Assembly: GCA_046483495.1 (NCBI GenBank)
Contig: JAWODC010000092.1
Span: 128,153-192,152 of the forward strand
DNA: 64,000 bases
Reading direction: 5' to 3'
From: Desulfobacterales bacterium
GTDB lineage: Bacteria > Desulfobacterota > Desulfobacteria > Desulfobacterales > UBA5616
Shown here: in pieces, positions 18,346 to 57,830 of the stretch
How positions within the stretch are numbered: the stretch's first letter is position 1
How the letters are laid out: each line of letters starts with the position of its first letter
The notes under the pieces: generated by a model
Databases searched by the model: none
Seen by the model: only the letters and a program-made list of their open reading frames with translations
What the model was told of the DNA's origin: nothing
Translations under genes and position numbers: made by a program

Positions 18346-18349
18346 GCGT

Positions 18350-21810: not shown

Positions 21811-23178
21811 ATGCCGACAAAAAGACTAGTCGTAATCGGAGGCAATGCGGCCGGAATGGGGGCTGCCTCCCAGGCGAGGCGTCAGCAGAACGATTTGATC
21901 ATAAAGGCATTCGAAAAGACGCCCTATCCGTCCTATTCACCATGAGGCATTCCGTACCTGATCGGCCGGGTAGTCGATAATCCTGAAAAATTGATCGTCC
22001 GAACCCCCAGAGTTTTCAGGGAAAAACAAAATATTGAAACCTACGTATCCCATGAGGTCCGGGAAATCGATATCGAGCGTCAGCGAATCCGCGTCCAGCG
22101 CAAGGAGGATGGAAAAACCTGGTGGGAGCCTTACGATCACCTGATGATCGCAACGGGGTCCGTTCCCATACGCATTCCGGTGCAAGGATCGGATTCAGAA
22201 GGCATTTTCGGCGTCAACACCTATGAAAGCGGAATTAAGCTGAATCGGTTCCTGGATGACGCGTCGGCTAAGAACGCCGTGGTGATCGGCGGCGGTTATA
22301 TCGGACTGGAAATGGCCGAGAATCTGATCAAAAGGGGACTGAGCGTTTCATTGGTCGAATTGAACAAAGAGGTGATGTCAACGCTGGATCCGGACATGGG
22401 AAAACTCGTATCCGATGCGCTGATCGAGATCGGTGTGAAACTTTTTCGGGAGGAACGGTTCGAGGGTTTTGAAACGGACAACGGGCGCGTCAGGGCGGTG
22501 GTCACCGATAAACGGACATTGCCCGCCGATGTTGTTGTACTGGGTATGGGGGTTCGGCCGAATACGGAACTCGCCCAAAAGGCCGGTATCCCCATCGGTC
22601 CGTCAAAGGGGATCAGGGTGAATCCGCTCCTGCAGACGGACGTGGAAAACGTATGGGCGGGAGGGGATTGCGCGGAGTCCATTCACCTGGTCAGCGGCAA
22701 ACCTGTTCATATCCCCCTTGGGACGGTGGCGAACAAACATGGCCGGGTGGCGGGGATCAACATCGGCGGCGGGTATGCCACCTTTCCCGGCGTAGTCGGG
22801 ACGGCTATGAGCAAAATATGTGCGGTCGAGGTCGCCCGAACGGGTCTTGGAGAAAAAGAGGTGCAACGTATCGGGCTGCACTATATCACCTCGGTTACAC
22901 GGACCAGGACACGTGCGGGTTACTACCCGAATGCGGATTCTATTTCAGTAAAATTGATTGCCGAAAAAAACACCGGCAGATTACTCGGTGCCCAAATCGT
23001 CGGCAGAGAAGGGGCTGCCAAACGAATCGATATTCTGGCAACCGCCCTGCATCGAAGAATGAACCTCCAGGAAATTATGGATTTGGACCTGAGTTATGCG
23101 CCTCCGTATTCACCTGTTTGGGACCCGGTGGCATTGGCGGCACGGGTGGCCTTGAAAAAACTTCAGCCCGATACATAA
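21811..23178 (+). CDS. CoA-disulfide reductase / NADH oxidase-family flavoprotein with in-frame UGA (predicted selenocysteine) at 21943-21945
   Basis: Track ORFs 21727..21945 and 21991..23178 share one frame and are separated only by TGA, with no other stop. The joined sequence MPTKRLVVIGGNAAGMGAASQARR...FEKTPYPSYSP-U-GIPYLIGRVV matches the family redox-centre motif S(F/Y)xxC(A/G)(L/I)PY(V/L)IG, with U in place of the Cys. Downstream FAD/NAD(P) motifs VVIGGGYIGLEMAE and AGGDCAE are present. ATG 21811 was chosen as the start. Confidence 0.75.
21955..21972 (+). promoter_or_regulatory. Candidate SECIS-like hairpin downstream of UGA 21943-21945
   Basis: UACCUG-AUCGGC-CGGGUA: 6 bp including one G-U pair, with a 6-nt G-containing loop. 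It begins 9 nt after the UGA. An imperfect lower extension is possible. This is the weakest of the three hairpins. Confidence 0.35.
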
Positions 23179-23261
23179 GGCAACCCGCACCGAGCACCGA
23201 AGCGGGGTCCGGAAATCATCGCGCTTTTGGAAATATCCCCGAAAGCTGAGGGAGGGTATGG

Positions 23262-23870
23262 ATGAGAATATGTTGGGCTATTGCCGCCGTCCTGATCGTA
23301 ACGGCCCTTGCGGGTACGGCATATATCTGGTCGGGAGCATACAATATATCGGCAAACGTGCCTCATTACCGGGTCACCTTTCGGCTGATGGAAGCACTCA
23401 AGAATCGATCCGTAAAATATCATGCCTCGGATATTCCGAATGTGCTGTTCGCCGGTCCGCTCGACGGTGCGCATAATGCCGCAATCACTTATTATCACGA
23501 CATGTGCCGTCGGTGCCATGGCGGTCCCGGTATATTGCGGGATACCTATGCCTTTGGACTGAATCCTGTTCCGCCGGACTTGACCACGGGAGAAGAACAA
23601 AAGCGATGGACGGATATTCAGCTCTTCTGGATCGTGGTCAACGGAATTAAATTGACCGGTATGCCGTCGTTCGGAGAAACGCATACCGAAGCTGAAATCT
23701 GCGATATCATCAATTTTCTCAACAGGCTGCCGCAGATGAGCGCCGCAGAATACCTGGCTCTTTCGGGAGCGTTGGAAAAAGAAAAACCCGAACCCCGCGA
23801 TCACCATGAATTCAGGCCGTTTCCACTGGAGCCGGAAATCGGCAGAAGTATCGATTACTTTATTCTATAG
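23262..23870 (+). CDS. Membrane-anchored/secreted mono-haem c-type cytochrome
   Basis: 202 aa with an N-terminal hydrophobic segment (MRICWAIAAVLIVTALAGTAYIW). There is a single CxxCH (CRRCH) and a distal Met block (GMPSFG). Confidence 0.7.
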   Translation: MRICWAIAAVLIVTALAGTAYIWSGAYNISANVPHYRVTFRLMEALKNRSVKYHASDIPNVLFAGPLDGAHNAAITYYHDMCRRCHGGPGILRDTYAFGLNPVPPDLTTGEEQKRWTDIQLFWIVVNGIKLTGMPSFGETHTEAEICDIINFLNRLPQMSAAEYLALSGALEKEKPEPRDHHEFRPFPLEPEIGRSIDYFIL

Positions 23871-24022
23871 AGAAGGAGAGCCGGCTGTCGAGGCTGTTGC
23901 AGACTCCCCGCCGATACGTTAAAATGGCAATACGAAAAGACAAGCCATTGTTTTGATTGATAGAGCTATTCGGCAAAATAATGATTCACGGGTGAAGACA
24001 AAAAGCAAGGAGAAGAGAAGCT

Positions 24023-24931
24023 ATGAAGGAACAGGCATTCGATGTCATCATATTGGGAGCCGGACCGGCGGGATTTCAGGCGGCGCTGCATGCGGTGCGC
24101 AGGAAAGCATCGGTTCTTCTGCTTGGCAAGGCCGCAAAAAGCAGCGCCCACGGTTCTCATATCGAAAATTTTTGCTGCATCCACGGCACGTCCGGTACCG
24201 AAATGCTGAAGCTCGCGAGTGAGCAGGCCCGGAAGGCGGGAGCCGTCGTTTCGGATGAGGATGTCATCGATGTGGAAACCGTCGACGGACGATATGCCGT
24301 TTATGGAGAACGCGGCGGAAAATATACGGCCGCGGCAATCGTTCTGGCGATGGGCATTTCACGCAACAGCTTGAAACTTCCCGGAGAAAAGAAGCTGATC
24401 GGCCGCGGTATCAGCTACTGTGTCGATTGCGATGGGCCGCTGTTTAAAAACGAGCCGGTGGCGGTTGTCGGATGCGAAAGTGCAGCAGGGAGCGGCGCGT
24501 TGACTTTGATGTTTTTCACTCCTGAAGTGCACCTGATCTGCGAGGCGCTTCACATGGATGACTATTTGGCGGAGAAAATCAAAAGCAGCGATATCCGGTT
24601 GCACGAAGGCCGAAAAGTGACGCATATCACCGGTGAAACGGAACTCGCCGGGATCGCATTGGATGATGGGACAAAATTGGACATCAAAGGAATGTTCATC
24701 GAACTCGGGGCAAAGGGCGCCGTCGGATTGGCCGGAAAGCTGGGCGTCAGGATGGATGAAGAAAATATGAAGTATGTAGCCGTCACGAGAAAGCAGGAAA
24801 CGAATCTTCCCGGCGTATATGCCGCCGGTGATATATGCGGGCCGCCATGGCAGGTAGCCAAAGCTGTAGGGGAGGGGTGCGTTGCCGGGCTTGAAGCGGC
24901 GGCGTATGCACGAAAGCCTAAATCCGGATAA
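24023..24931 (+). CDS. Thioredoxin-reductase-like FAD disulfide oxidoreductase lacking canonical NADPH motifs
   Basis: 302 aa. The FAD motif DVIILGAGPAGFQAA, the redox CxxC (SYCVDCDG, compare CATCDG) and the C-terminal GVYAAGDI are present. The second dinucleotide motif reads VVGCESAAGSGA instead of GGGxSA, and no HRRxxxR is present. Confidence 0.75.
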   Translation: MKEQAFDVIILGAGPAGFQAALHAVRRKASVLLLGKAAKSSAHGSHIENFCCIHGTSGTEMLKLASEQARKAGAVVSDEDVIDVETVDGRYAVYGERGGKYTAAAIVLAMGISRNSLKLPGEKKLIGRGISYCVDCDGPLFKNEPVAVVGCESAAGSGALTLMFFTPEVHLICEALHMDDYLAEKIKSSDIRLHEGRKVTHITGETELAGIALDDGTKLDIKGMFIELGAKGAVGLAGKLGVRMDEENMKYVAVTRKQETNLPGVYAAGDICGPPWQVAKAVGEGCVAGLEAAAYARKPKSG

Positions 24932-25066
24932 ACGGAACAGGCGAAGGAATCAAGTTTGGTCAAAAAGTGGACATAAACGCATGGCAAGCAGATGGATTTT
25001 TCCGGTTTTTCAAACGATATATGAAAAAAACCGGCTTGCATCGAAATACGATGGGGTATTTGGCGT

Positions 25067-25468
25067 ATGAGAGAATCACTCGAAGGGGCGGTCAGACTGG
25101 GGCGCCGCATGGGACATATCTTTGTGGCGACGGCCGATGCCCGTGGCGTTCCACACATGGCCTCCTCTGCAAATATCAGAATTGAAGGGGAAGGACTTAT
25201 CGGCATTTCCGAATGGTTTTGCCCTGTAACGCTTTCAAATGTGAGGGTAAATCCCAAAATCGCCCTGCTGGCATGGGACCCCGAGACCGATATAGGGTAT
25301 CAGATGATCGGCACTTGCCGGGAAGTGCAGGAAACATCCATGATGAACGGTTTTTCAGAAGAATTGGATGAAGAGCAGCCGATTCCCCAGGCGGAAAACA
25401 CGCTCCTCGTCTCCATAGAAAAAATCATTCAGTTCAGCCATGCGCCTCACAGTGATGCGGGAACATGA
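25067..25468 (+). CDS. Pyridoxamine-5'-phosphate-oxidase-like (split-barrel flavin-binding) family protein
   Basis: 133 aa. The pattern ...HIFVATADARGVPHMASS...NVRVNPKIALLAWD resembles the PPOX-class split-barrel family. This is a weak assignment from motif memory only. Confidence 0.45.
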   Translation: MRESLEGAVRLGRRMGHIFVATADARGVPHMASSANIRIEGEGLIGISEWFCPVTLSNVRVNPKIALLAWDPETDIGYQMIGTCREVQETSMMNGFSEELDEEQPIPQAENTLLVSIEKIIQFSHAPHSDAGT

Positions 25469-25552
25469 TAACCCGCTTCCAATGGATGTTGTATCCTGTG
25501 GTTCAATTCCCTCCCTGGGTCGAGTGATTTTGCCGCGCTATAACGCAGATAT

Positions 25553-26338
25553 TCAGGATTTCTGGCACGCGGGGCAATAGTAGGCGGACCTGCCTGAAAT
25601 TTTTATACGATGAACCTTACCATTGCATCCGGGGCAGTCGGCATCTTCCTTCCGATGGGAAATCAGAAATTTTTCAGGCATTTTTTCCGGATCGGCACGG
25701 CGCTCGATCGCCGTTTCCAGAACCGATTTCATGGACTCGTACAGCTTTCGGGATTCTTTTTTATCGAGGCCGTTTGTTTCCTTTTGGGGGTGTATCCGTG
25801 CCTGAAAGCAAACCTCGTCCGAATACACATTTCCAATTCCGCACAACGTATTCTGCTTCATTAAAAACGATTTGACCCCTGAGCGGTTTTCGGCCAACAT
25901 TTTTTGAAAAGCATCGTATGTCACGTCCAGTGCATCGACACCCAGTTTCTTTTTTTTCACGAACGTGTCGATGTCTTTTGTCCACCCGATTTTCCCCAAT
26001 TTCCGGGTACAGTCATAGGCCAGGTGGTTTTCGCCGTCAAAATCAATCAGCAGCCGTACGTGCTTGGGCATGCCGTCTTCCGCTTGAACAAACGTGACAA
26101 ACCCGGTCATGCCGAAATGAAGGGTCATCCACTCCCCTTTTTTCAACCGCGCCAGGGCATATTTCCCATAGCGGGCGGTTTCCTCGAATGCGTTGCCCTT
26201 CAATTCGGATTGAATTTTGGTTTTGGAAACGGACTCGAGAATTCCCGCATCGAGTACTCGGCACCGTTCGATGGTCCTGTTAAGGGAGGTGTCGTCGATG
26301 ATTCGTCTGAAGATCTCAACGTCCGGCAGTTCAGGCAT
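25553..26338 (-). CDS. Fpg/Nei-family DNA glycosylase/AP lyase
   Basis: 261 aa. The N-terminal MPELPDVE carries the catalytic Pro2/Glu3. An H2TH region is present, as is the C-terminal zinc finger CPGCNGKVHRIKISGRSAYYCPACQ. Confidence 0.85.
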   Translation of the reverse strand: MPELPDVEIFRRIIDDTSLNRTIERCRVLDAGILESVSKTKIQSELKGNAFEETARYGKYALARLKKGEWMTLHFGMTGFVTFVQAEDGMPKHVRLLIDFDGENHLAYDCTRKLGKIGWTKDIDTFVKKKKLGVDALDVTYDAFQKMLAENRSGVKSFLMKQNTLCGIGNVYSDEVCFQARIHPQKETNGLDKKESRKLYESMKSVLETAIERRADPEKMPEKFLISHRKEDADCPGCNGKVHRIKISGRSAYYCPACQKS

Positions 26339-26445
26339 TTTTACTTCCTTTCGTCACCATCAGTTCGTGGGCTTCGTTTTCGGCTTTTGTATCGCCGATA
26401 GAGAAGTTCTGCCCGTAGTCGGCGCCGGGAAATACATTTCCCGTT

Positions 26446-26943
26446 TTACCCTTTTTCGGACAGCATCTGTTTCAGTTTTTGCTCATCGGTGTGGGCCAAG
26501 GATGCTTTCATGACCTTTCCATCGAATTTTTCGAGCTCCCCGAGAATGTCTGATGCATGTTCGCCGTGAAAAATGAGAAACAGCGCCGATGTGCCGGGCC
26601 GAAGCTCGTCGGCCAGCCTGCGCATGAATCCCTCATCCAGGCCGATGTCCTCGGTCGCCCCGACAGCCGCTCCTGCTATGCCGCCGACGATTCCCCCGAA
26701 CAATGCGAGCAGCGGATTGATAATGATCAAACCGGCCAGAAAACCCAAAAACCCGCCACTCAAAGCGCCGGGGAAGGTGAACTGATGCGAATGATGAAAA
26801 TGAACGCGGTGTTTATTGTCGATTTCCACAATAACGGATTCCTCGAGGTCGACCCCTTTTTCTTCCATGACCCGGTTGATATGCTTTCGAATGTTTTCTG
26901 CTCTTTCCAAGGATTGCGACGTCTTGATGATAAGATCGGGCAT
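26446..26943 (-). CDS. DUF1269-like membrane protein (Gly-zipper TM segments)
   Basis: 165 aa. The central segment GALSGGFLGFLAGLIIINPLLALFGGIVGGIAGAAVGA is followed by DIGLDEGFMRRL...GTSALFLIF, as in DUF1269 proteins. Confidence 0.6.
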   Translation of the reverse strand: MPDLIIKTSQSLERAENIRKHINRVMEEKGVDLEESVIVEIDNKHRVHFHHSHQFTFPGALSGGFLGFLAGLIIINPLLALFGGIVGGIAGAAVGATEDIGLDEGFMRRLADELRPGTSALFLIFHGEHASDILGELEKFDGKVMKASLAHTDEQKLKQMLSEKG

Positions 26944-27616
26944 ACTTCACCTGTTTTTTTTCGCTTCAGATTCAACTTGAGAACCAATGATAATTATTTC
27001 TTTAAAATACTTCGTATCTGTACTCGAAGCATTTGGAAATGGGGTGAATACGTTATTTTGAAAGCGGCCGGCATGTAAATCACGGTGAGAAGACCGGTTG
27101 ACGCGTTTCGCTGTGCTTTACCCATCATGGGATGCCTGTTTTTAAATCGCGATCAGGTTCGATGGCGACACCTATGTCGACACCGATATCGATATTGAAA
27201 CGTCAAAGCGCCGATGGTTCGACGTTCACTGATTCAAAGGATTTCAAAAAAGCGAAAACCTTGCTCTCAGCCGCAAAATGTTTCTGAATGGACACCGAAA
27301 TAATCGGAGTTCGACCACGCCTTACATGGTTTCCCCCATTGTCCGTTTTCAACATCGCAGGTAATAATTACAGCAAGATGTTCGGGACCGGACCGATGAC
27401 GTTTTTTGCCCGGCGGCATTGGGGAAAAGAAATGACGGAAAGAAACCCAACGTAATGCATTACGGTGAGGAGGTGATTCGAAACCCGGATGGGAAAACGG
27501 CAGACAAGCTTTAATGATATGCAGGTGCAGCGGTCATCCGCCAATGGTTTACTTCGAGCGGTCGCCGCGATTTCCAAGCGTCACCAACCCAAAACTCGAA
27601 AGGGAGGAATTTTATC

Positions 27617-28186
27617 ATGAAAACGACATTAATGGGTCTGATTGGCGGCCTTGCAGTGATTTTTTTGGTGACCATTGCAGTGCACTTCGATGGTCCGGCC
27701 ATATCCGCAGAAAACTACCCCGCTCCGGATGCTCAGGAAGTTTGGGAATACATGCAGGAGAAAAATTACACGGAGTGGCAGTCCATACCGGGTTATCCGG
27801 GCATTTTCGGGAAAACAAATGCGGAGAGCCCTCACGGCGCTTTCTTGAAGCTGCATCTCAATGATGTCGCAATATTTTCCCTGCAGAAAGATTTTGAGGA
27901 AATGATCCACCGTTCCATGTTTGTCATGGAGAATTTCTCGAAAGATGATGATGAAACCCCGGAGTTCGTCACGGTACAATATAAATACGAAGGGTACAGC
28001 CCGGATGGCGGAGACTGGTTTTGGGCACAATATGAACCCGATGGCACGGTGATCAATGCCGGAAAAGTAGAAAGCTGCATCCAATGCCATTCCCAGACCG
28101 ATTACAAAGACTATCTGCTTGTCGTGCCGGACCAGAAAATCTGGGAACCGAGTCCTCCTGTCGGCGCTACGGGCGGCGGCCTGTAA
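27617..28186 (+). CDS. Cytochrome P460-family haem protein (secreted)
   Basis: 189 aa with a signal/anchor segment (MKTTLMGLIGGLAVIFLVTIAV). The C-terminal GGDWFWAQYEPDGTV...CIQCH arrangement is typical of the P460 family. Confidence 0.6.
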   Translation: MKTTLMGLIGGLAVIFLVTIAVHFDGPAISAENYPAPDAQEVWEYMQEKNYTEWQSIPGYPGIFGKTNAESPHGAFLKLHLNDVAIFSLQKDFEEMIHRSMFVMENFSKDDDETPEFVTVQYKYEGYSPDGGDWFWAQYEPDGTVINAGKVESCIQCHSQTDYKDYLLVVPDQKIWEPSPPVGATGGGL

Positions 28187-46336: not shown

Positions 46337-46861
46337 ATGAATCTAATGAACAAAAAATCATGGTCCCCCTATTGGGTAGGGGGTGCCATCGGCATTCTGG
46401 AGACGGTGGCGATGCTTACCGCAAAAAGGCCGTTGGGCATTACGACCGCTTTTGAAAACGCCGCAGCCATGGCGGCCGGCAAGCTGGCACCGAAAAAATT
46501 GGGGATCGAGGAATATCGACACCAGAGTGGCCAGACGCCGAAAATCGACTGGGAGACGGGGCTCGTCGGCGGGGTTATGCTTGGAAGTCTGATCAGTGCC
46601 CGCTTGTCCGAAGACTCGAAACCGCCTGAAGTGCCGACTGCCTGGCAGGAGAAAGTCGGCCGGTCAAAGGCGCTCCGATTTGCGGCCGCCACCGGCGGAG
46701 GCGCGCTCATGATGATCGGCGCCCGAATGGCAAAGGGGTGCACGAGCGGTCACGGCATCAGCGGGACGATGCAATTCGCAGCTTCCAGTTGGCTCTTCGA
46801 TCCGATTATCTTTGCATCCGGGGCGGTGGTGTCCAGGGCGCTGTTCGGGAGGAAAACATGA
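46337..46861 (+). CDS. YeeE/YedE-family sulfur-compound transporter component (first half-type protein)
   Basis: 174 aa membrane protein. PLGITTAF and MAKGCTSGHGISG are the YeeE/YedE Cys-containing motifs. Confidence 0.75.
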   Translation: MNLMNKKSWSPYWVGGAIGILETVAMLTAKRPLGITTAFENAAAMAAGKLAPKKLGIEEYRHQSGQTPKIDWETGLVGGVMLGSLISARLSEDSKPPEVPTAWQEKVGRSKALRFAAATGGGALMMIGARMAKGCTSGHGISGTMQFAASSWLFDPIIFASGAVVSRALFGRKT

Positions 46862-47418
46862 CACGAGAATCCATTGGAAGACTTTTGCTCGGGTTCGGGA
46901 CAGGCGCGGCATTCGGTTTTCTGTTGCATAAGGGGCGGGCTTCGGAATATGAGGTCATTTCCGGTCAATTGCTCGCAACCGACGCATCCGTCGTTAAGAT
47001 AATGGCTACCGCGTCCGCTGTCGGCGCCTTTGGAACCCAACTTCTCAACCGGCATGAAAAGGCGGATATCAAAATCAAGCCGCTCAATGCCGGGGGCGTT
47101 GCCGTTGGGGGGACACTTTTCGGGATAGGAATGGCGCTCCTGGGGTATTGTCCGGGGACCGATATGGCGGCCTTGGGTGCCGGCCATACGGATGCGGCCT
47201 TCGGCGCGGTCGGAATGTTCGGCGGTGCACTGGCCTTTGTGGGGCTTTACCCCTATATAAAACCGGTGATCGAAAAAGGTGCCGTCGGAAAACGAACACT
47301 GCCGGAGCTCACCGGCACCTCTCCCTGGCTTTGGGTTTCCGGAATCGCGGCTGCAGCGGCGGTGACTGCCGGGTTTTTGGAGAAAAACGGTTCCCGCCGC
47401 CAATCCGCTGTCGAGTAG
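46858..47418 (+). CDS. YeeE/YedE-family sulfur-compound transporter component (second half-type protein)
   Basis: ATG 46858 overlaps the upstream stop (ATGA). GFGTGAAFGFLLHKG and LLGYCPGTDMAALG are YeeE/YedE-type motifs. Confidence 0.75.
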   Translation: MTRESIGRLLLGFGTGAAFGFLLHKGRASEYEVISGQLLATDASVVKIMATASAVGAFGTQLLNRHEKADIKIKPLNAGGVAVGGTLFGIGMALLGYCPGTDMAALGAGHTDAAFGAVGMFGGALAFVGLYPYIKPVIEKGAVGKRTLPELTGTSPWLWVSGIAAAAAVTAGFLEKNGSRRQSAVE

Positions 47419-47486
47419 GGACACGACGATAAGCCGGACCATTCAGTTCTAAAGATAACCATGCATTTCCCGAAAGGAGGCAAGAC

Positions 47487-48869
47487 ATGGGAAAATTGTT
47501 TCTTGAAACCATACGTTCGGAGGGCCTGTCCCACCTGTCCTATATTATCGGCCATGGCGGGAAAGCGGCTGTCATCGATCCACGTCGTGACAGCCGGGTT
47601 TACGTCGATATCGCATATGAAAAAGGGGCATCGATCACCCATATTTTCGAAACCCACCGGAACGAAGACTACGTGATCGGTTCACTCGATTTGGCCGGGC
47701 GGACAGGTGCGGAAATTTATCACAGCCATGCCACCGAATTCGACTATGGAAATGCGGTATCCGAGGGAAGCCGTTTTCAGTTGGGCAGCCTCGAATTCAG
47801 GGTGCTGGAGACGCCGGGGCATACCTACGACAGCCTGTCGCTTGCCCTTGTCGACAAGAGTTTCGGGGAGGACCCTATTGCAGTCTTTACCGGCGATGCC
47901 CTGTTTATCGGAGACGTGGGCAGAACCGATTTTTTCCCCGACCGCAAGGAGGAGGTCGCCGGCCTGCTGTATGACAGCATTTTTAATAAACTACTGCCCC
48001 TTGGCGACTATGTTATTCTATATCCGGCCCATGGCGCGGGATCGGTCTGTGGCGCCGGTATGGCCGATCGCGAGTTTTCGACACTCGGATTTGAACGGCG
48101 GCATAATCCCGTGCTGCAGAAAACGGACAGGGAGGCGTTCATCCGGTACAAGGTCAACGAGCATCATTACAAGCCCCCGTATTTCAGCCAAATGGAAAAA
48201 TTCAACCGTGAAGGGGCGCCGTCCCTTTGCGAAATTCCGAAACCGCCGCCGTTGGGGCCGTCGGCATTCGAAGAGCGAATGAATAACGGCATGATTGCCG
48301 TCGATACACGAAGCGCGGAAGCCTTTGCCGGCTCCTTTATCCCCGGAAGCATCGCACTGCCGCTTGAAATGATCCCGGCATTTGCGGGATATTTTATTCC
48401 CTACGACCGGGAAATCGGTCTGATCACGTCGGGATATGAGCATGTGGACAGGGCCGTGCGCTTCCTGATCCGCATGGGCTATGATACCATCGCCGGCCAT
48501 CTCGATGAAGGGCTTCATTCCTGGCAGGTCAGCGGACGGAAATACGACCGGATTCCCGCCGTTCACGCCAAGGAGCTTGTCCGGCGTATTCAATCCAATG
48601 AAGACTTCACGCTTTTGGATGTTCGGCGGATTGACGAGGTTCAAAAGGGCCACCTGCCGGGAGCCGTTCACATCTATCTTGGAGATCTCCCGGACCGGCT
48701 GAACGATGTTCCGAAAGAGCGGCCCGTCACCACTTTTTGCGGGAGCGGTCAGCGGGCGATCATCGCCGCGTCCATTCTCAAGCAAAACGGATTTGAGCTG
48801 GTCGAGGACAGTTTAGGATCCATGGCGGCGTGCAACGTCATCGGGTGTCCGATTATAACCAAGGAATAA
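47487..48869 (+). CDS. MBL-fold hydrolase fused to two rhodanese domains (persulfide-dioxygenase-like architecture)
   Basis: 460 aa. The MBL core carries the variant metal motif ETHRNEDY and the block TPGHTYDS. The first rhodanese domain lacks Cys. The second has the active loop FCGSGQRA. Confidence 0.8.
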   Translation: MGKLFLETIRSEGLSHLSYIIGHGGKAAVIDPRRDSRVYVDIAYEKGASITHIFETHRNEDYVIGSLDLAGRTGAEIYHSHATEFDYGNAVSEGSRFQLGSLEFRVLETPGHTYDSLSLALVDKSFGEDPIAVFTGDALFIGDVGRTDFFPDRKEEVAGLLYDSIFNKLLPLGDYVILYPAHGAGSVCGAGMADREFSTLGFERRHNPVLQKTDREAFIRYKVNEHHYKPPYFSQMEKFNREGAPSLCEIPKPPPLGPSAFEERMNNGMIAVDTRSAEAFAGSFIPGSIALPLEMIPAFAGYFIPYDREIGLITSGYEHVDRAVRFLIRMGYDTIAGHLDEGLHSWQVSGRKYDRIPAVHAKELVRRIQSNEDFTLLDVRRIDEVQKGHLPGAVHIYLGDLPDRLNDVPKERPVTTFCGSGQRAIIAASILKQNGFELVEDSLGSMAACNVIGCPIITKE

Positions 48870-50359: not shown

Positions 50360-50382
50360 ATTTTGGGAAAAGGAGAATGCAA

Positions 50383-50769
50383 ATGGTGAAAATAATGATC
50401 TTCACGGTGTTGGGAATGTTGTGGCTTGCCGGTTCCGTTAATGCAGGTGAACCTGCAGGAAAAAGCGAGATTCCGCGAATCTCTCCCGAATCGGCCCATG
50501 AACAGGTGCAGTCCGGTGAGGCCCTCCTCGTCTGCGCCTATGATGATGAACGATGCAGACAACTCCTCCTGGAGAATGCCATTCTCCGCAGTGAGCTGGA
50601 ATCCCGGCTTCCTTCCATCGATAAGGACCGGGAAATCATTTTCTACTGCGGCTGACCGAGCGAAAAAACGTCCGCCCGTGTGGCGGCCCAATACAGGGAA
50701 AAAGGGTACACCCATGTGAAGGCCCTTGCCGGGGGAATAGACGCCTGGAAGGCCAAGGGATACGAGTGA
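50383..50769 (+). CDS. Exported single-domain rhodanese with in-frame UGA (predicted selenocysteine) at 50653-50655
   Basis: ATG 50383 lies 7 nt after AAAGGAG. The signal peptide is MVKIMIFTVLGMLWLAGSVNA. The frame continues through TGA: ...REIIFYCG-U-PSEKTSARVAAQYREKGYTHVKALAGGIDAWKAKGYE, then TGA at 50767-50769. The post-UGA sequence is a typical rhodanese C-terminus (SARvA...GY..V..L.GG..AW). Confidence 0.7.
50670..50688 (+). promoter_or_regulatory. Candidate SECIS-like hairpin downstream of UGA 50653-50655
   Basis: CCGCC-CGUGU-GGCGG (50672-50686): 5 bp of G-C pairs, plus one more pair after a mismatch, with a G/U-containing pentaloop. The stem starts 16 nt after the UGA. Confidence 0.45.
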
Positions 50770-50901: not shown

Positions 50902-51243
50902 TCAATCATTGTTCCGGTCGTAAGGCGGCTGCCGAACGCCGTGGCGGTCCTCCCAGAAATCCGGATCGTAATCGCCGTCGCCGCGTCCTTGCTCATCTTC
51001 CCAATAATCCTCCTGATCCTCTTCGTCGACACCATAGTAAGCCCTGCCGCGGCGGTCTTCCGTATCATAAGGCGGCTGTCGAACACCGTAACGGTCCTCC
51101 CAGAAATCCGGATCATAATCGCCGTCGCCGCGTTCCTGCCGATCCGCCCTACTATCGGTTCCGTCCTGTCCGAATGCGGGCATGGCGGCAAACAGCGTCA
51201 AGGCTAAAAGAGTGAAGAAAATTGACGTTAGTTGCCCTCTCAT
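50902..51243 (-). CDS. Secreted acidic repeat protein (113 aa), unknown function
   Basis: Signal peptide MRGQLTSIFFTLLALTLFAAMPAFG. The mature part carries two copies of RGDGDYDPDFWEDR(Y/H)GVRQPPYD separated by an acidic linker. Confidence 0.6.
   Translation of the reverse strand: MRGQLTSIFFTLLALTLFAAMPAFGQDGTDSRADRQERGDGDYDPDFWEDRYGVRQPPYDTEDRRGRAYYGVDEEDQEDYWEDEQGRGDGDYDPDFWEDRHGVRQPPYDRNND
50917..51132. repeat. Intragenic direct repeat, 2 x 69 bp (50917-50985 and 51064-51132), 147-bp period
   Basis: The two DNA copies are nearly identical (for example cggtcctcccagaaatccggatc[g/a]taatcgccgtcgccgcg). They encode the duplicated 23-aa module of the secreted protein. Confidence 0.85.
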
Positions 51244-51682: not shown

Positions 51683-52915
51683 ATGACCAAAAAATGGCAT
51701 ATTACAAAAATTCTTTTTATTTTTGTGCTGGCACTGGTCTCCATCTATTTTTCTTCTCGTTCGGCAGCCAGTGCTGAGCCCAAAGCTGGTGATGTTATCG
51801 ATGCCGGTAATGTCGGACAATTTAAAAATTACCTCCCCTATTTTATGGTTCGATGGGTTGAGGGATCTTGGGGATTTGAATCGCCCATCGCTATTACGGT
51901 AAAGAAGCCCGAAGATTGGCCGATAACCAGTGCATTCCGGAAAGCATCGGAGCAAAATATCGGCAAAGTCACACTCACATCCGAAGGGTTGATCGAAGGC
52001 TATACGGGTGTCGGTGTTCCTTTTCCGAATCCTAAAGAGCCGGATCTCGCACTTAAGATTATGTGGAACAAATTTTATATGGATCTGCCCGAAGACTGGA
52101 GCCTTCCGGATAGTTTCCTGGTATTTTCAAAAAGAAAGGGGGGAAGCGTTAGTGTATACAACAGCATTTATGACTGTCTCAAGTTCTCAGGCCGCACAAT
52201 ACGACCGCCCCTTCCGGAGCTTGACAATCCAAACGGTCTTTATTGGGCTACCATTCTCAATTCTAAAACGCCCCCGCTAAAAGATATGGCAACCTTAACA
52301 TGGCGATATAAAGATCCTACAAAATATGATGACATGTGGACCTATGTACCCACATTGCGGAGGACCTTGAGAATGATGTCTTCCGAGAGGGCGAACCCCA
52401 TCCAAGGTTCTCCAAGCACGTGGGATGAGATTTGGGGCTTTGATGGGCTTATCCCCCTGTTTACCTATAGGCTGCTCAGGAAAGAAAAAACGTTAATGAT
52501 AGCAAATATGCACACAACCGCCGATAAGCTCCCCGACGGGATGTACAATCATCCAATTCTCTTCGGTCAAAATGATCCCTATGAACTCGTAGACGCTTAT
52601 GTAATTGAAATCACATCCAAGGATCCCCGATACCCCAGTTCAAAGTGGGATTTTTGGGTCCGGGACAGGCACTGGGCAGGCTTTTATGCAGAGATATATG
52701 ATAAGCGAGGTGAGTTTTGGAAAAGCAATACCACTTCCTTTATCGTCAGGCCGCTCGGCAATTCAAAAACTGATTTTTACGCCCTCAGGTTGGGTGGTGG
52801 GGCTGTAGACTACAAGACCCAATATTGGACCATAAACTTTGTCGGTGATCTTAACACGAATACCGGACTAGACCAAGAGCGTTTTGATCCAAGTATTTTC
52901 GGCGGGGGATGGTAG
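51683..52915 (+). CDS. DUF1329-family exported protein (LolA-like outer-membrane lipoprotein-sorting fold family)
   Basis: 410 aa. The signal peptide (ILFIFVLALVSIYFSSRSAASA) is followed by WRYKDPTKYDDMWTYVPTLRRTLRMMSSERANPIQGS, which matches the conserved DUF1329 core. The RBS AAAGGAG lies upstream. Confidence 0.75.
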   Translation: MTKKWHITKILFIFVLALVSIYFSSRSAASAEPKAGDVIDAGNVGQFKNYLPYFMVRWVEGSWGFESPIAITVKKPEDWPITSAFRKASEQNIGKVTLTSEGLIEGYTGVGVPFPNPKEPDLALKIMWNKFYMDLPEDWSLPDSFLVFSKRKGGSVSVYNSIYDCLKFSGRTIRPPLPELDNPNGLYWATILNSKTPPLKDMATLTWRYKDPTKYDDMWTYVPTLRRTLRMMSSERANPIQGSPSTWDEIWGFDGLIPLFTYRLLRKEKTLMIANMHTTADKLPDGMYNHPILFGQNDPYELVDAYVIEITSKDPRYPSSKWDFWVRDRHWAGFYAEIYDKRGEFWKSNTTSFIVRPLGNSKTDFYALRLGGGAVDYKTQYWTINFVGDLNTNTGLDQERFDPSIFGGGW

Positions 52916-52974
52916 AAAGTCAATTCCCGAAACAGTAGATGTGAATGTGTGTAATGGGTTAGTCTCCAGAACTA

Positions 52975-55284
52975 TTAGAGATTCAGGGCGGCCCTGCCGA
53001 TCACCAGATCCTGCATGTCTTGCGGCAGTTCCACGAATCGAGCACTGAAGCCTGCAACCCGCACCAGCAAATCGGGGTATTTTTCGGGGTTTTTTCTGGC
53101 ATCCATGAGCATCTCCTGCGATAGGAGGTTGCACATCAGATGGGTCCCCCCCATGGAGACCAGGTATGTTTTAAAGAGATTGGCCAGCATTTCGGTTTCC
53201 CCGTCGATGGTCAATGTCAAGGAACCGGTCCAGCTTCTTGCGTGATCCAATTTTGCCGCTGATCGAAAAACGTCGGTCGGACCGCCGTGAAAGGCGCTTT
53301 TTGCCGGGGCGATCCCGTCACTGAGCGGCTCGTGTGCCCTTCGTCCGTCGGCCGTTGCCGCCGTGGCTTCTCCGAAGTTCAAGGCGAATGTCAGGGAGTG
53401 GAAACCGGGAATGGAAGGCCCCGGACGGTCGGGCAATATACGGCATCGATGTTTATCCGCTTCATCGAGCCAGAAGTCAGCCACTTCCAATGCCAGATCA
53501 TCGACATAGTCGTCATCGTTCCCCCATTTGGGCGCATCGTGGAGTTTTTGTCTTAACCCGGCGTATCCTTCGAAATTCCGGTCCAAGGCGTTCAGCAAAT
53601 CGGAAATGGAACTGCTCTTTTCATCGAAGATCACCTTTTTTATCGCCGCCAATGAATCGGCGGCGGTGCCCAGCCCCACGGCATGCATGCCGATCCAATT
53701 GTCTCGTCCGCCGCCGGCCAAAACATCGAGCCCCTTTTCCATACACCCCCGCACGTTGATCGACGCATACGGAAGACATGTTTCATTGCGGAGAACGGCA
53801 TCAGTAAACTCGGATTCCGTGTTCAACATCGTGATGCCGTAGGCAATCTGCTTTTTGAAGGCATCCATTACATGGTCAACATCACGAAACGTCCGGGGAT
53901 CACCCGTTGAAAGCCCGATCCGTTTGCCCGTCAGCCGGTCGACACCGTCATTAAGGGCGAGGTCCAGCATTTTTACCAGATTGACCCAGGCACTGTGATC
54001 CTTCCGGGCATATGTCGTGAAATGCTGACAGCCGTCGATCGAATAATCGCGGGCTTCTTTCAATGGTATGCCGCGGCGCAGCAAGGCCGGAATAACGGCA
54101 TCGTCGCTGTTCAGTTGGGGCCGTCCTCCGCTGACCCGCATAACGTCGATGGCGCGCTTGAGAAGGTGATCCGGCGTCTTCTTGTTGATTCTGAGTCCGA
54201 ACTGCGGCTTGGGAATGCGCACAAGTTCGAGAGCGTCGAGCAGCATATACGTCATTTCATTGGTGGCATCCTGCCCGTGTTCGGTCTGACGTCCGATGGT
54301 GATGCCGTTGACATGCGAATCGAGATCGCTGATCGGGGAGCTGTTCTCGCCGAATTTAAACAGAAAATGGGCCAGCAGTTCAACGGCTTTTTCCCGGGTG
54401 ATTACGCCTTGGTCACGATCGGTTTTGTAATAAGGATAAAGGATAGCATCCAATCCGCCCATGGATATGGAATCCCCTCCGGATTCGATGCTGCCTACAA
54501 GAAAGGCGAACCATGAGGCCTGAAGGGCTTCATAAAAAGAGCGGGCCGGGTTGGAAGGCACGTGTTCACATATGCGTGCGATTTCTTCCAGCTCCTCTTT
54601 GCGCCGATGCTCCGCGTGACGGGATGTTTCCCGCGCCAATCGAGCATAGCGCAAGGAAAAATCGGCAACCGCATCGCAGACGATTGCTATTGCCTTGTAG
54701 AAAAACTGCTTGTAGACGGCATCCGTCGATTCGAGATCGATGCTTTCAAGCTTTACTTCCGCATCCTGCTTGATGCCGGAAAATCCCTTGGCGAGAATCG
54801 TCGGCAGATCGATAAGATAGCGCCCCCTTCGATTGCCCGCAACACCCATGTGCCAATACCACAAAGAAGCCTCTCTTCCGGCTTTCACGTTTGCCGGCAA
54901 ATGCGCACACAGCCTGTCCGTGCAGTTTTTTCCATTCCAGTAAGCCATCAGGGATTCGATTTCCTGTCTGGCTTGATCCGTTATGACAGGCATCAATGCG
55001 GGATTGACGTGAAACCCCATCTGGTCGGGTGTGGCGCCGAATTCCGGCCACAGGGGAATTCCGCGAAAGAAGCTTGCCCAGTGTCCGAGCAACCGTTCGT
55101 CATCCAAAATCCAAACGCTCATGCAGTCAAGAACAGCCTCGAGCATTCGGGCCGCCCGAATGACGCCCGGTTCGGAAGCATAACGCTTGTGGGCATCCAT
55201 GGCAATCAGCGCCCTTTGGGTGCAGAGCTGGGGCTTTTTTTCCCGGTAATGCTGCAGTAAGGAAAATATTCCGCTGTTCATCAT
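52975..55284 (-). CDS. Glycyl radical enzyme (PFL2/glycerol-dehydratase-like clade), substrate unknown
   Basis: The C-terminal glycyl radical motif is LVRVAGFSARFVEL. Family blocks include GGLDAILYPYYKTD. The Cys loop reads DYSIDGCQHFTT. The start was chosen at MMNSG (ATG 55282-55284) after GGAGG; the track ORF extends to 55701 without support. Confidence 0.88.
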   Translation of the reverse strand: MMNSGIFSLLQHYREKKPQLCTQRALIAMDAHKRYASEPGVIRAARMLEAVLDCMSVWILDDERLLGHWASFFRGIPLWPEFGATPDQMGFHVNPALMPVITDQARQEIESLMAYWNGKNCTDRLCAHLPANVKAGREASLWYWHMGVAGNRRGRYLIDLPTILAKGFSGIKQDAEVKLESIDLESTDAVYKQFFYKAIAIVCDAVADFSLRYARLARETSRHAEHRRKEELEEIARICEHVPSNPARSFYEALQASWFAFLVGSIESGGDSISMGGLDAILYPYYKTDRDQGVITREKAVELLAHFLFKFGENSSPISDLDSHVNGITIGRQTEHGQDATNEMTYMLLDALELVRIPKPQFGLRINKKTPDHLLKRAIDVMRVSGGRPQLNSDDAVIPALLRRGIPLKEARDYSIDGCQHFTTYARKDHSAWVNLVKMLDLALNDGVDRLTGKRIGLSTGDPRTFRDVDHVMDAFKKQIAYGITMLNTESEFTDAVLRNETCLPYASINVRGCMEKGLDVLAGGGRDNWIGMHAVGLGTAADSLAAIKKVIFDEKSSSISDLLNALDRNFEGYAGLRQKLHDAPKWGNDDDYVDDLALEVADFWLDEADKHRCRILPDRPGPSIPGFHSLTFALNFGEATAATADGRRAHEPLSDGIAPAKSAFHGGPTDVFRSAAKLDHARSWTGSLTLTIDGETEMLANLFKTYLVSMGGTHLMCNLLSQEMLMDARKNPEKYPDLLVRVAGFSARFVELPQDMQDLVIGRAALNL

Positions 55285-55658
55285 CCGGCCTCCTTTTGTT
55301 GGGGGATATCGAACAGTAAACGTTATGGGGATCTGCATTACAGAATACGTTTTTAAGAGAGATGTCTTATTAGTCACATTATCATCACTTGCCGCCTCGA
55401 TCAAATCCTTTTCTACGTTCAGCACGTGGTATGCTCGATAATCGGCTTTTCGGCATTCGGCATGAACGGCGGTTCGAATTAAAGGAGTGTTGACAAGAGC
55501 ACCCGGAAAAGTGGTATTAAACCGAAAACGGTTGGACGGCGCCGCTCTCTTTCCCGTTGACGTTCGTTCCATGGCGCCGGCGAATGGCCCAAACCGCTTT
55601 GCCTTCGATGAGAAAGCCGAATCATTTCTTATAACGCGTGTAAAAAAGGAGTGTGGTG

Positions 55659-56471
55659 ATGCAGGTAAATGATAAAGTGATCGTCGTGACCGGCGGCGCA
55701 AACGGGATCGGCGAGTCCCTCTGCCGGCGATTCGTTAAAGAAGGTGCACGTGCGGTTGTGGCCGCCGACCTCGACGAGGAACGGGTGAAAGCCCTGGCGG
55801 ATGAATTGGGCATCCTGGGGATGAAAACGGACGTGGCCGACGAGTCGGACATCGTTCACCTGGTTCAAACAACCGAAAAACAGTTCGGTCCGATCGACCT
55901 TTTTTGTTCGAACGCCGGCATCACTTCATCCGACGCGCCCGGTTGGACCGCCGCTTCCGCAGAGAACGAAATCTGGCAAAAATCCTGGGAAATTCATGTC
56001 ATGGCCCATGTCTACGCCGCAAGGGCGGTGCTGCCGGGAATGATTGCACGGAAGAGCGGATATCTTCTGAATACATCTTCGGCAGCCGGTCTTCTCAACC
56101 AGATCGGAAGTGCTCCATATTCTACGACCAAGCATGCCGCTATCGGTTTTGCCGAAGCGTTGGCCATCACCCATGGGGATGACGGCATCAAGGTCTCGGT
56201 GCTGTGCCCCCAAGCGGTCCGGACCCGCATGATTGCGGGCGCCGAGGAAGGGTCGGCCGCGGTAGACGGCATTCTGGAGCCCGAAGAGGTGGCCGATTGC
56301 GTGATTCGGGGGCTTGCTGAAGAAACGTTTCTCATTCTGCCCCATCCGGAGGTGAAAACGTACTACCAGCGAAAAGCCTCCGACTACGATCGCTGGATCA
56401 ACGGAATGCTTCGGTTTGCCCGAAAAATCCTTCCCTACATGAAAGGGCGCAGCGAAAACACGCGTGAATAG
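55659..56471 (+). CDS. Short-chain dehydrogenase/reductase (classical SDR)
   Basis: VIVVTGGANGIGESL (TGxxxGIG), NAGI and the catalytic YSTTKHA (YxxxK) are present. ATG 55659 lies 6 nt after AAAGGAG. Confidence 0.85.
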   Translation: MQVNDKVIVVTGGANGIGESLCRRFVKEGARAVVAADLDEERVKALADELGILGMKTDVADESDIVHLVQTTEKQFGPIDLFCSNAGITSSDAPGWTAASAENEIWQKSWEIHVMAHVYAARAVLPGMIARKSGYLLNTSSAAGLLNQIGSAPYSTTKHAAIGFAEALAITHGDDGIKVSVLCPQAVRTRMIAGAEEGSAAVDGILEPEEVADCVIRGLAEETFLILPHPEVKTYYQRKASDYDRWINGMLRFARKILPYMKGRSENTRE

Positions 56472-56559
56472 GCTCCATCAGTAAACGGGAAAATTCGATC
56501 CCGATCATGCTGAAAAAAAATAGAACCAATGGTGCCGTAACGCCCCATGAGGGCTGAAT

Positions 56560-57363
56560 TTATCTGCGAACCAGGTTTTCCAGCTTTTTTCTGCCATCGG
56601 CACTCAATCCCAGGAGGTCGATTTCGCGCGACAACTGATCGGCGGTTCCGTTTCCGCCCGCATATCCGTTGAGGTGCGCCACGGCCGTAGAGTCAATAAA
56701 ATCCATATGATCCGGATAGATATTCGCCATTTCGCTATGCAGGACGCGATGGGATTTCAGCAGGTACTTTTGGTGATAATCCTCGGCCGTCGTAAATGAG
56801 CGGACCGGCAGCACCTCGGTTTTTACGGCACGGCCGAAGTCGTTTTCAACGCCGGTCTTGGAGGCCAGTGCCTGCCGGCGCTGCTCTTCAGTGTGATGGA
56901 AGACAGCCCGCCTATACTGCGGCGAACGGTGCTGCCGGTTCGGATTGTGGCTTTTCCAGAAAATGTCCAGTAGTTGGTCATAACTGATGCGCTGAGGATT
57001 ATAGTCCACCTGAACGGTTTCGGTATGGTCCCCCATATGGTAATACGTCGGCGAATCGATCGAGCCGCCGGCATAGCCCACACGTGTTCTCACGACCCCC
57101 TCGATGATCCCGAACCGGGATTCGATTCCCCAGAATCAACCAAGGCCGAAATAGGCCGTTTCAAGGACCTGAGGTACGGCCGCATCGATTGGTGGAAGCT
57201 TCGCCGACTCGGTTTCGAGACGATATGCAAGGTTCATGGAACGCTCCTTTTCATCAAAAGCAAGATCCGCCTGTGCCGTTGTCGGCGTTACGGCAACGAG
57301 CAGCGTCGATATGATGCCGAATAATAACCCCATAAGGTCATGTGCAACGTTTCTTCGTGTCAT
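56560..57363 (-). CDS. msrA: Exported peptide-methionine (S)-S-oxide reductase MsrA with in-frame UGA (predicted selenocysteine) at 57136-57138
   Basis: Track ORFs 57136..57369 and 56560..57093 share one frame and are separated only by TGA. The joined sequence ...ETAYFGLG-U-FWGIESRFGIIEGVVRTRVGYAGG matches the MsrA motif G-C-F-W-G..E..F....GV..T.VGYAGG, with U at the catalytic Cys. The N-terminal signal MTRRNVAHDLMGLLFGIISTLLVAVTPTTAQA is present. ATG 57361-57363 overlaps the receiver-gene stop (ATGA); GTG 57369 is the alternative start. Confidence 0.8.
57101..57125 (-). promoter_or_regulatory. Candidate SECIS hairpin downstream of UGA 57136-57138
   Basis: Minus-strand RNA: UCGA-AUCCCG-GUU-CGGGAU-CA-UCGA. 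The upper stem is 6 bp with a GUU apex (or 5 bp with a GGUUC loop), there is a 2-nt bulge, and the lower stem is 4 bp. It begins 10 nt after the UGA. Confidence 0.55.
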
Positions 57364-57830
57364 CTGCACGTCTTTCTTTTGCTGCTTATATCGGAAAGGT
57401 TCGATTGCACCTTTTGTGCAAATTCGATCAACTCATTGAAGCTGCCCGGTTTGGTGACAAAATCCGAGACGCCGAGTTCGGAACAGTACATCCGGTCCTG
57501 TGGTGAATCCGACGTTGTCAATACGATGACGTCCAAATCCTGAAATTCCGGGATCGTTCGGATTTCTTTCAGCGCTTCCCGGCCGTCTTTTCGAGGCATG
57601 TTCAGATCGAGTAAAATGCACAGCGGTTTCGGATGCGAGCCGGTCCCGTTGTTTTTCAAATAGAGATCAAGCCGGTCCACCAACTCTTCACCGTCACCCA
57701 CGAAATGCAGTTCCACGGAAAGCCCGCTCTCCGCGAAAGCCTCCTTGATCAATAATTGATCGTCCGGATCATCTTCAGCGACTAATATCGGATACCGGCC
57801 GAAATCAATGTGTCGTTTTTCCCGGTTCAT
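57360..57830 (-). CDS. Stand-alone response-regulator receiver protein (CheY-like, no output domain)
   Basis: ILVAEDDPDDQLLIKEAF, ILLDLNMPRKDG (phospho-acceptor Asp) and VIVLTTS...KP are present. ATG 57828-57830 overlaps the kinase stop (ATGA). Confidence 0.85.
   Translation of the reverse strand: MNREKRHIDFGRYPILVAEDDPDDQLLIKEAFAESGLSVELHFVGDGEELVDRLDLYLKNNGTGSHPKPLCILLDLNMPRKDGREALKEIRTIPEFQDLDVIVLTTSDSPQDRMYCSELGVSDFVTKPGSFNELIEFAQKVQSNLSDISSKRKTCR

Follow-up and report, generated by a model that had tools for sequence, protein, structure and literature searches.

Three genes within 36 kb of a Desulfobacterales contig are each interrupted by an in-frame TGA, and the locus raises the question of whether these codons are stops or are read as selenocysteine (Sec), whether two of the products are exported, and what such a density says about the selenoproteome of the organism. 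The window, meaning the whole stretch of DNA that was analysed, comprises 64,000 nucleotides (64 kb) of the Desulfobacterales bacterium assembly GCA_046483495.1 (contig JAWODC010000092.1, positions 128,153 to 192,152, forward strand), and positions are given in window coordinates. The three genes encode a flavoprotein of the CoA-disulfide reductase/NADH oxidase (CoADR/Nox) group (gene 1), a rhodanese (gene 2) and a methionine-S-sulfoxide reductase A (MsrA; gene 3). Our analyses suggested that the window very probably holds three unlinked, ordinary bacterial selenoprotein genes, in each of which one UGA is read as Sec.

The initial annotation of this DNA had claimed three genes split at TGA and had proposed a rescan for in-frame TGA codons. 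An exhaustive scan for open reading frames (ORFs) bridged by TGA recovered three credible split genes in the 64 kb, all at the places claimed, and a second scan, for a hairpin resembling a selenocysteine insertion sequence (SECIS) with open frames on both sides, left the same three sites; exactly the three claimed cases are plausible. These scans revealed no further selenoprotein gene in the remaining ~28 kb. Unrelated genes separate the three, which are unlinked. Other TGA-bridged candidates, including those upstream of GlgB and of a GH57 enzyme, were rejected, their upstream pieces being non-coding or shadow frames.

Comparison with relatives carries the reading of these codons as Sec. For the rhodanese, a genome scan with a narrow alignment, limited to one genome per species, yielded 80 loci from Desulfobacterota, Geobacterales, Nitrospirota, Acidobacteriota, Planctomycetota and other groups; for MsrA, 72 metagenomic loci of the subfamily were compared; and for the Nox clade, five loci (L161-L165) were checked in the DNA. 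TGA is kept at the same codon in 80/80, 69/72 and 5/5 of these loci, respectively, with the frame kept on both sides, and each family has a conserved downstream stem-loop with GU in the loop. In addition, Cys forms are known in all three families: 108 close homologues of the flavoprotein (among the top matches), three MsrA loci together with many database proteins, and the rhodanese P0004. Since the TGA, the downstream frame and a family-specific stem-loop are all kept in relatives, there is strong support for Sec recoding in each of the three genes, and the comparative data back what the initial annotation had proposed. Its further claim that each TGA sits at a Cys position also holds: the Nox and MsrA codons align to the redox-active or catalytic Cys of solved structures, and the rhodanese codon is TGC in P0004.

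Among the rhodanese loci, 78 carry C-x-U and two carry U-x-U, and about 38 conserved in-frame codons follow the TGA. The two double-Sec forms (FY-U-A-U-P) are found at L012 (TGA 3265-3267 and 3271-3273) and L077 (TGA 3232-3234 and 3238-3240). Non-Sec forms are rare; P0004 has Cys, and P0005, P0048 and P0020, seen as protein records only, read S, G and L. The window protein combines a rhodanese domain (Pfam Rhodanese 35.9, cut-off 22.2) with the Cys-x-Sec or Sec-x-Sec motif of a group in which Cys homologues are rare. Its ATG at 50383 follows a GGAG Shine-Dalgarno sequence (50372-50375) by 7 nt, and its own terminator is likewise a TGA (50767-50769). NF041203 (rhodanese_LYCAU) is its best-matching family at 62.4 bits, against a cut-off of 115, and eight tested relatives score 40.8-72.7 bits; because the window protein and all eight relatives fall below the cut-off, the EIIFYCxUP group is best regarded as a sister family that NCBI's NF041203 misses. 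Clustering of the genes flanking the 80 loci gave no conserved gene neighbourhood.

The RNA structure of this family was assessed in a 51-nt ungapped alignment of 61 sequences starting from the TGA. The helix formed by columns 18-24 and 30-36 is 86% paired, compared with 28-52% when the partners are slid, and compensatory changes occur at synonymous third-codon positions (pair 21-33: UA 33, CG 16, UG 7). The covariation score was reached by 0 of 500 shuffles; G26 of the loop never varies, and U27 hardly does. The Cys form P0004 (L168:1158-1481, FYCACP) retains a hairpin, UCCGCC-CGGCG-GGCGGA, at the usual distance, with the loop GU lost. It looks like a fossil SECIS, which is consistent with the Cys form descending from a Sec form, and such descent has been described for other families (PMC1794560).

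The initial annotation had placed each TGA at a catalytic or conserved Cys. For the rhodanese, P0004 does have TGC at this codon, but the alignments are split over which residue fills the canonical catalytic slot. Ungapped profile alignments to GlpE (1gmx) and to domain 2 of 6mxv place Sec91 on the catalytic Cys. In conflict with this, Cys89 takes the catalytic position when the protein is aligned to domain 1 of 6mxv, and also in the AlphaFold model of P0004. In that model (pLDDT 85), the strand EIIFY leads into a six-residue loop, CACPHE, and then a helix.

For MsrA, family membership is clear, with scores of 134.8 against TIGR00401 (cut-off 108.1) and 143.7 against Pfam PMSR (PF01625; cut-off 23.7). 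Residues 65-265 match the Clostridium oremlandii MsrA structures 4lwj, 4u66 and 7c13 (E=2e-50), including the C-terminal helical domain typical of that enzyme. None of the 267 residues is Cys, so the protein has no resolving Cys and is of the 1-Cys type. The catalytic codon is TGC in the three loci of 72 that lack TGA. Over 70 sequences, the helix of columns 16-23 and 27-34 is 80% paired, with compensatory pairs at 18-32 (CG 34, AU 15, UG 6, GU 4) and 23-27 (GC 53, AU 6); the loop G24 U25 U26 is invariant, and 0 of 500 shuffles reached the covariation score.

The flavoprotein matches Pfam Pyr_redox_2 (residues 5-294, spanning the TGA) and Pyr_redox_dim, both above threshold, and bears no export signal. 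Its TGA aligns on the redox-active Cys of S-Y-x-x-C-G-x-P-Y in 6ruz and 3cgb: in the Thermus NADH oxidase 6ruz (E=2e-109), Sec stands opposite the Cys of SYGACGLPY, and 3cgb is the Bacillus CoA-disulfide reductase. With Sec in place of the single redox-active Cys in SYSP-U-G-I-P, it belongs to the UGxP selenoprotein form. Since its score against TIGR03385, the CoA-disulfide reductase equivalog, is below the cut-off (444.6 vs 578.8 bits), CoA-disulfide specificity is not established; against NF007123 it reaches 395.5 bits (cut-off 458). Alongside the Cys forms, about 12 homologues are N-terminally truncated in the database and one reads W where the DNA has TGA; the closest relatives (65-70% identity) are all truncated in this way. 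Judging from these homologues, the Sec form is a minority clade of the Nox family. The five loci checked comprise four behind truncated proteins and L165, which encodes the W protein P0277. They share a stem-loop 14-15 nt after the UGA, (A/G)UCGGCC, then GGGU, AGGU or GGUU, then GGUCGA(U/C), and one A-U to G-C exchange occurs in the stem among six sequences including the window. We consider this evidence supportive rather than conclusive.

Across the three families, the conserved stems begin 14-16 nt after the UGA, and the loop GU lies at nt 24-29, numbered from the U of UGA. The three elements have no sequence in common, and their stems are short (5-8 bp). Of the 2146 TGA triplets in the window, 2.5% match a SECIS-like pattern that requires a stem of 5 bp or more, beginning 11-18 nt past the TGA, and a 3-7 nt loop containing GU; all three sites are among them. 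For a plain 5-bp hairpin beginning 6-18 nt past the TGA, the share is 19.7%, so a hairpin within range is by itself a weak criterion. The initial annotation had reported a hairpin after each TGA; such hairpins are indeed present, at 9, 16 and 14 nt, but the one 9 nt after the flavoprotein TGA is not the conserved one. That hairpin (UACCUG/CGGGUA, 21955-21972, -6.7 kcal/mol) overlaps the one at 21961-21978 (-6.1 kcal/mol), and the two are mutually exclusive and nearly isoenergetic; it was dropped as the flavoprotein SECIS, since relatives conserve 21961-21978 instead. SelB, carrying Sec-tRNA(Sec), would be brought to the ribosome at each UGA by the stem-loop that begins 14-16 nt further on.

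Table 1. Predicted features of the three selenoprotein genes, their immediate neighbours and the matching GenBank proteins.
Feature	Position	Strand	Description
Gene 1, Sec flavoprotein	21811-23178	+	cytoplasmic FAD/NAD(P)H pyridine-nucleotide-disulfide oxidoreductase, CoA-disulfide reductase/NADH oxidase group; 455 aa
Gene 1 UGA (Sec45)	21943-21945	+	motif SYSP-U-GIPY, from translation
Gene 1 probable SECIS	21961-21978	+	AUCGGC / loop CGGGUA / GUCGAU; 15 nt after UGA
c-type cytochrome downstream of gene 1	23262-23870	+	membrane-anchored; Pfam Cytochrome_CBB3
Thioredoxin-reductase-like flavoprotein downstream of gene 1	24023-24931	+	Pfam Pyr_redox_2; TIGR01292 below cut-off
Gene 2, Sec rhodanese	50383-50769	+	single domain, predicted export signal; 128 aa; Pfam Rhodanese spans TGA
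Gene 2 predicted signal peptide	50383-50445	+	MVKIMIFTVLGMLWLAGSVNA then GE; read from sequence
Gene 2 UGA (Sec91)	50653-50655	+	motif EIIFY-C-G-U-P-S-E (IIFYCG-U-PSEKTS)
Gene 2 SECIS	50672-50686	+	CCGCC / loop CGUGU / GGCGG; 16 nt after UGA; fits family consensus
Gene 3, 1-Sec MsrA	56560-57363	-	methionine-S-sulfoxide reductase A, predicted export signal; 267 aa
Gene 3 predicted signal peptide	57268-57363	-	MTRRNVAHDLMGLLFGIISTLLVAVTPTTAQA then DL; read from sequence
Gene 3 UGA (Sec76)	57136-57138	-	motif GLG-U-FWG; aligned to catalytic Cys16 of Clostridium oremlandii MsrA
Gene 3 SECIS	57107-57121	-	AUCCCG / loop GUU / CGGGAU; 14 nt after UGA
Response regulator upstream of gene 3	57360-57932	-	Pfam Response_reg
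PAS histidine kinase upstream of gene 3	57827-59560	-	Pfam HATPase_c, HisKA, PAS
MFO7965876.1			395 aa; flavoprotein residues 61-455 only
MFO7965904.1			90 aa; 'hypothetical protein', locus R6U50_18400; rhodanese residues 1-90 only
MFO7965909.1			188 aa; MsrA residues 80-267 only

Several results weigh against this overall reading. First, selA, selB, selC and selD were not found in the 64-kb window by Pfam and tRNA scans, and tRNA and Rfam scans of it gave no match, tRNA-Sec included. Second, minimum free energies of 60-nt segments did not differ significantly from shuffles at the three sites, where the hairpins are thermodynamically unremarkable; this folding test is uninformative for short SECIS hairpins. 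Third, a covariance model of the rhodanese SECIS, run on the window with filters off, found its own site alone (51.9 bits) and missed those of MsrA and Nox, so the shared covariance model that had been proposed as a check proved uninformative across families. Fourth, the flavoprotein and the rhodanese both lie below the curated NCBIfam cut-offs of named families, the Nox SECIS is based on six sequences only, and the signal peptides were judged by eye and by conservation. We infer actual Sec insertion in this organism from the conserved codons, frames and stem-loops.

From the density of these genes, the initial annotation had argued for an expanded selenoproteome. Two organisms serve for comparison, Desulfobacterium autotrophicum and the Desulfosarcina-like delta-1 symbiont of Olavius. 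The former has at least 31 selenoproteins, some of them periplasmic, plus selABCD (PMC2702500), and large selenoproteomes together with selABCD are known in the Desulfobacterales lineage (PMC2702500, PMC1976440), which makes an expanded set in this genome plausible. We give even chances to a simpler account, namely that three Sec genes in 36 kb are a chance cluster in a typical Sec-using deltaproteobacterial genome. The absence of linkage, with unrelated genes in between, the lack of a conserved neighbourhood for the rhodanese family and the lack of further selenoprotein genes in the other ~28 kb all fit chance, and ordinary Desulfobacterales carry about 30 selenoproteins (PMC2702500). Yet we estimate that ~30-60 Sec genes in 5-8 Mb would give fewer than one in 36 kb, and all three families co-occur in the very selenoprotein-rich Olavius symbiont, where NADH oxidase, MsrA and rhodanese-related sulfurtransferase selenoproteins are found together (PMC1976440).

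Export signals had been claimed for two of the three genes, and leaders are indeed present on the rhodanese and MsrA and are kept in the closest homologues of both. The rhodanese leader combines a short basic n-region with a hydrophobic core of 13 residues, and V-N-A precedes the predicted cleavage site; in the MsrA leader, an RR-containing n-region and a hydrophobic core of 16 residues lead up to A-Q-A. In the rhodanese family, 13 of 60 scored homologues, the closest ones and mostly Desulfobacterales or Desulfatiglandales, have a signal peptide or lipobox, while the other 47 are leaderless. In the MsrA subfamily, nearly all of the 72 loci, whether of the Sec or the Cys form, have an in-frame hydrophobic signal or lipobox, and a conserved linker, (I/L)PPID-x-x-x-P, comes after it. 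In the window MsrA and the copies closest to it, n-regions containing RR or KR are combined with A-x-A sites. The N-termini of L104, L112, L124, L148-L150 and L159 are twin-arginine-type lipoprotein signals with RRxLMK (e.g., LSRRSLMKLIGLSAFGMGLWISAC), which suggests that these MsrA proteins may be exported by the Tat system. Predicted export of both window proteins is well supported by conservation, and from the same features we would infer cleavage of the signal peptides and a periplasmic location.

It appears unlikely that the rhodanese and MsrA, although selenoproteins, are not soluble periplasmic proteins, either because the leaders are uncleaved anchors or because translation starts later and the products are cytoplasmic. 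The MsrA leader does contain an internal ATG (MNLAYR...), the signal peptides were recognised by reading the sequence, and 47 of the 60 scored rhodaneses as well as the characterised C. oremlandii MsrA (PMC4479559) are cytoplasmic. However, the closest homologues keep in-frame leaders with n-, h- and c-regions and A-x-A sites or a lipobox, some with RRxLMK, and Cys-form MsrA homologues are annotated at full length with their leaders. Furthermore, the upstream starts are credible, as the MsrA ATG overlaps the preceding stop (ATGA) and the rhodanese ATG has a well-spaced GGAG, and the domain would end up outside the cytoplasm even if the anchor stayed uncleaved. In principle, periplasmic Sec has precedent, and exported selenoproteins with signal peptides are known elsewhere (bioRxiv 10.1101/2022.07.06.499078; PMC13510729). 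A limited search of the open-access literature found no description of an exported Sec-MsrA.

Two other explanations deny Sec decoding altogether. An alternative genetic code, in which TGA is a sense codon for Trp or Gly, finds a semblance of support in database proteins that have W at this position (P0002, P0008, P0078, P0081, P0093, P0140 and P0277), but is scarcely credible. The three W proteins that were checked, one per family (P0277/L165, P0002/L166 and P0078/L167), have TGA in the DNA, and translating their loci with table 11 does not give the database protein; because the codon is TGA, the database W is an artefact of gene callers that used a TGA=Trp table for short contigs. Moreover, TGA is the commonest stop in the window, ending 16 of 37 long ORFs, among them Pfam-supported genes and the rhodanese itself; no in-frame TGA at housekeeping Trp or Gly positions was seen in the TGA-bridged ORF scans of the window; homologues carry Cys rather than Trp or Gly at the position; and the organism is a Desulfobacterales bacterium. 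That the TGAs are real stops, in pseudogenes, assembly errors or pairs of short genes, agrees with the GenBank annotation and with the non-significant 60-nt folding z-scores, but is negligibly probable and already refuted in practice: the truncated products would lose the catalytic residue or most of the domain, and pseudogenes or errors fail as an explanation because the codon, the strongly conserved frame past it and the RNA helix are kept in dozens of independent loci that span many phyla and samples.

Reading the three TGAs as Sec has direct consequences for annotation. GenBank proteins of the Desulfobacterales metagenome-assembled genome match the truncated fragments at 99-100% identity (Table 1), lie together on a contig of 193,114 bp and cut all three proteins at the TGA, in line with the earlier warning that ORF calling mis-annotates such genes. 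The same is seen more widely: most database rhodanese homologues stop exactly at ...EIIFYC[GASQK], with 94-96 residues, and most MsrA homologues in protein databases are N-terminally truncated just past the TGA. Most database homologues of the rhodanese and the MsrA clade are cut at the TGA or carry a spurious Trp, the TGA=Trp gene calls disguising selenoproteins as apparent Trp variants. Protein catalogues built from such predictions miss or mis-size these selenoproteins, and the curated NCBIfam selenoprotein model does not pick up the EIIFYCxU rhodanese family.

The finding itself is one of new, mis-annotated members of selenoprotein families that are already known, and none of this changes the current understanding of Sec decoding. 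Three aspects are modestly new. First, the clade of 1-Sec MsrA with predicted export signals occurs widely, and most of its members are encoded with Sec. Second, the EIIFYCxU rhodanese family is Sec-encoded almost without exception and systematically truncated in databases. Third, the conserved flavoprotein SECIS differs from the most stable local hairpin. The genes add to the picture of Desulfobacterales as heavy users of Sec in thiol and sulfur redox chemistry, and they point to a putative exported, Sec-dependent methionine sulfoxide repair enzyme.

As to function, Sec45 of the flavoprotein would replace the single redox-active Cys, which in this group cycles via sulfenic acid or a mixed disulfide, and the intermediate would be a selenenic acid or selenenylsulfide. 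In the rhodanese, the Cys-x-Sec pair in the active-site loop most likely accepts sulfane sulfur (or selenium), or else may cycle via a selenenylsulfide, and it would suit such chemistry whichever of Cys89 and Sec91 is the canonical nucleophile. In MsrA, Sec76 would attack methionine-S-sulfoxide in envelope proteins and form a selenenic acid, which an external thiol would have to reduce, since the enzyme has no resolving Cys. A bolder proposal, which we hold to be quite improbable, is that the putatively exported 1-Sec MsrA and Cys-x-Sec rhodanese are part of an undescribed envelope chemistry of selenium redox and sulfur transfer in Desulfobacterales, with a novel MsrA reductant and a rhodanese step impossible for Cys. 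Under this proposal, because the cytoplasmic type depends on glutaredoxin and glutathione, MsrA must use another, extracytoplasmic reductant; we know of no glutaredoxin or glutathione available in the periplasm. Candidates, if it were true, would include sulfide or polysulfide, a thiol protein linked to a cytochrome, or a carrier of sulfur, for which the putatively exported rhodanese would be an example.

Upstream of the Sec-MsrA gene, the histidine kinase, response regulator and MsrA genes lie on the same strand with ends overlapping or abutting, and the MsrA ATG (57363) overlaps the response-regulator stop (ATGA). This arrangement (56560-59560, minus strand) suggests that the three may form one operon, with regulated expression of MsrA. 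Around gene 1, the order GT20 trehalose-phosphate synthase, GAPDH, Sec-flavoprotein, c-type cytochrome and thioredoxin-reductase-like flavoprotein (window 16360-24931) is kept in L161, a 70%-identical relative from another metagenome bin. Near gene 2, a split YeeE/YedE-type sulfur-transport pair (46337-46861 and 46858-47418, plus strand, with an ATGA overlap) is followed by a metallo-beta-lactamase-rhodanese fusion; together these genes (46337-48869) make up a module for handling thiosulfate or persulfide, ~1.5 kb upstream of the Sec-rhodanese. A link to selenium metabolism has also been drawn for YedE-type genes. On the opposite strand, immediately past the rhodanese (50902-51243, minus), lies a gene for a small secreted protein with a signal peptide and two copies of the motif (G)DGDYDPDFWEDR(Y/H)GVRQPPYD.

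Elsewhere in the window, a large alpha-glucan/trehalose cluster occupies 569-17904, mostly on the minus strand, with a GlgE-type maltosyltransferase, a TreS-maltokinase fusion, a branching enzyme, a GH77 4-alpha-glucanotransferase, other amylase-family genes, GT20 and a GH57-like ORF (named from translation only). An exported cytochrome P460-like protein is encoded at 27617-28186 (plus). The segment 29589-35873 (plus) encodes an Omp85/POTRA protein and, after it, a TamB-like protein of 1467 residues, which make up a TamA/TamB pair (translocation and assembly module). At 52975-55701 (minus) there is a pyruvate-formate-lyase (PFL)-like glycyl radical enzyme, the real start of which is probably downstream, as the PFL domain begins only at residue 148 of the longest ORF.

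Comparison with known systems places all four elements, the three proteins and their SECIS, within established types. In E. coli fdhF, the paradigm of bacterial SECIS, the apical-loop G-U lies ~20-26 nt after the UGA. The three elements here resemble it as stem-loops within the coding sequence, directly after the UGA and with GU in the apical loop, but their sequences are family-specific and unrelated to fdhF. As for the proteins, all three families appear under identical motifs (UGxP, CxU and GUFWG) in a 2026 review of selenoproteins in prokaryotes, which names the rhodanese-like form 3 (CxU, NF041203) and MsrA (GUFWG) (PMC13188914). The flavoprotein agrees with known CoADR/Nox selenoproteins in fold, domain order and S-x-U-G-x-P (PMC13188914, PMC1794560, PMC1976440); it is set apart by having Thermus 6ruz as its nearest solved relative and by its conserved cytochrome c and thioredoxin-reductase-like neighbours. 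The rhodanese shares a single rhodanese domain and the Y-C-x-U motif with the rhodanese-like form 3, but falls into a subclade whose members have a signal peptide or lipobox (the 13 of 60 homologues above). A UxU rhodanese and the lack of Cys homologues were already reported for the rhodanese-related sulfurtransferase selenoprotein of the Olavius symbiont (PMC1976440), and the UxU variant and near-absence of Cys homologues are common to it and the gene 2 family (PMC1976440, PMC13188914). Finally, the closest counterpart of the window MsrA is CoMsrA of Clostridium (Alkaliphilus) oremlandii OhILAs (PDB 4LWJ-4LWM, 4U66 and 7C13), residues 5-205 of which align to gene 3; both have Sec in G-U-FWG, no resolving Cys and the extra C-terminal helical domain. 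CoMsrA is natively a selenoprotein and cytoplasmic, and forms a selenenic acid that is regenerated by glutaredoxin, not thioredoxin (PMC4479559). Unlike CoMsrA, the window enzyme has a 64-residue N-terminal extension with a predicted signal peptide and the conserved PPIDAxxP linker, and its gene sits behind a histidine kinase and a response regulator.

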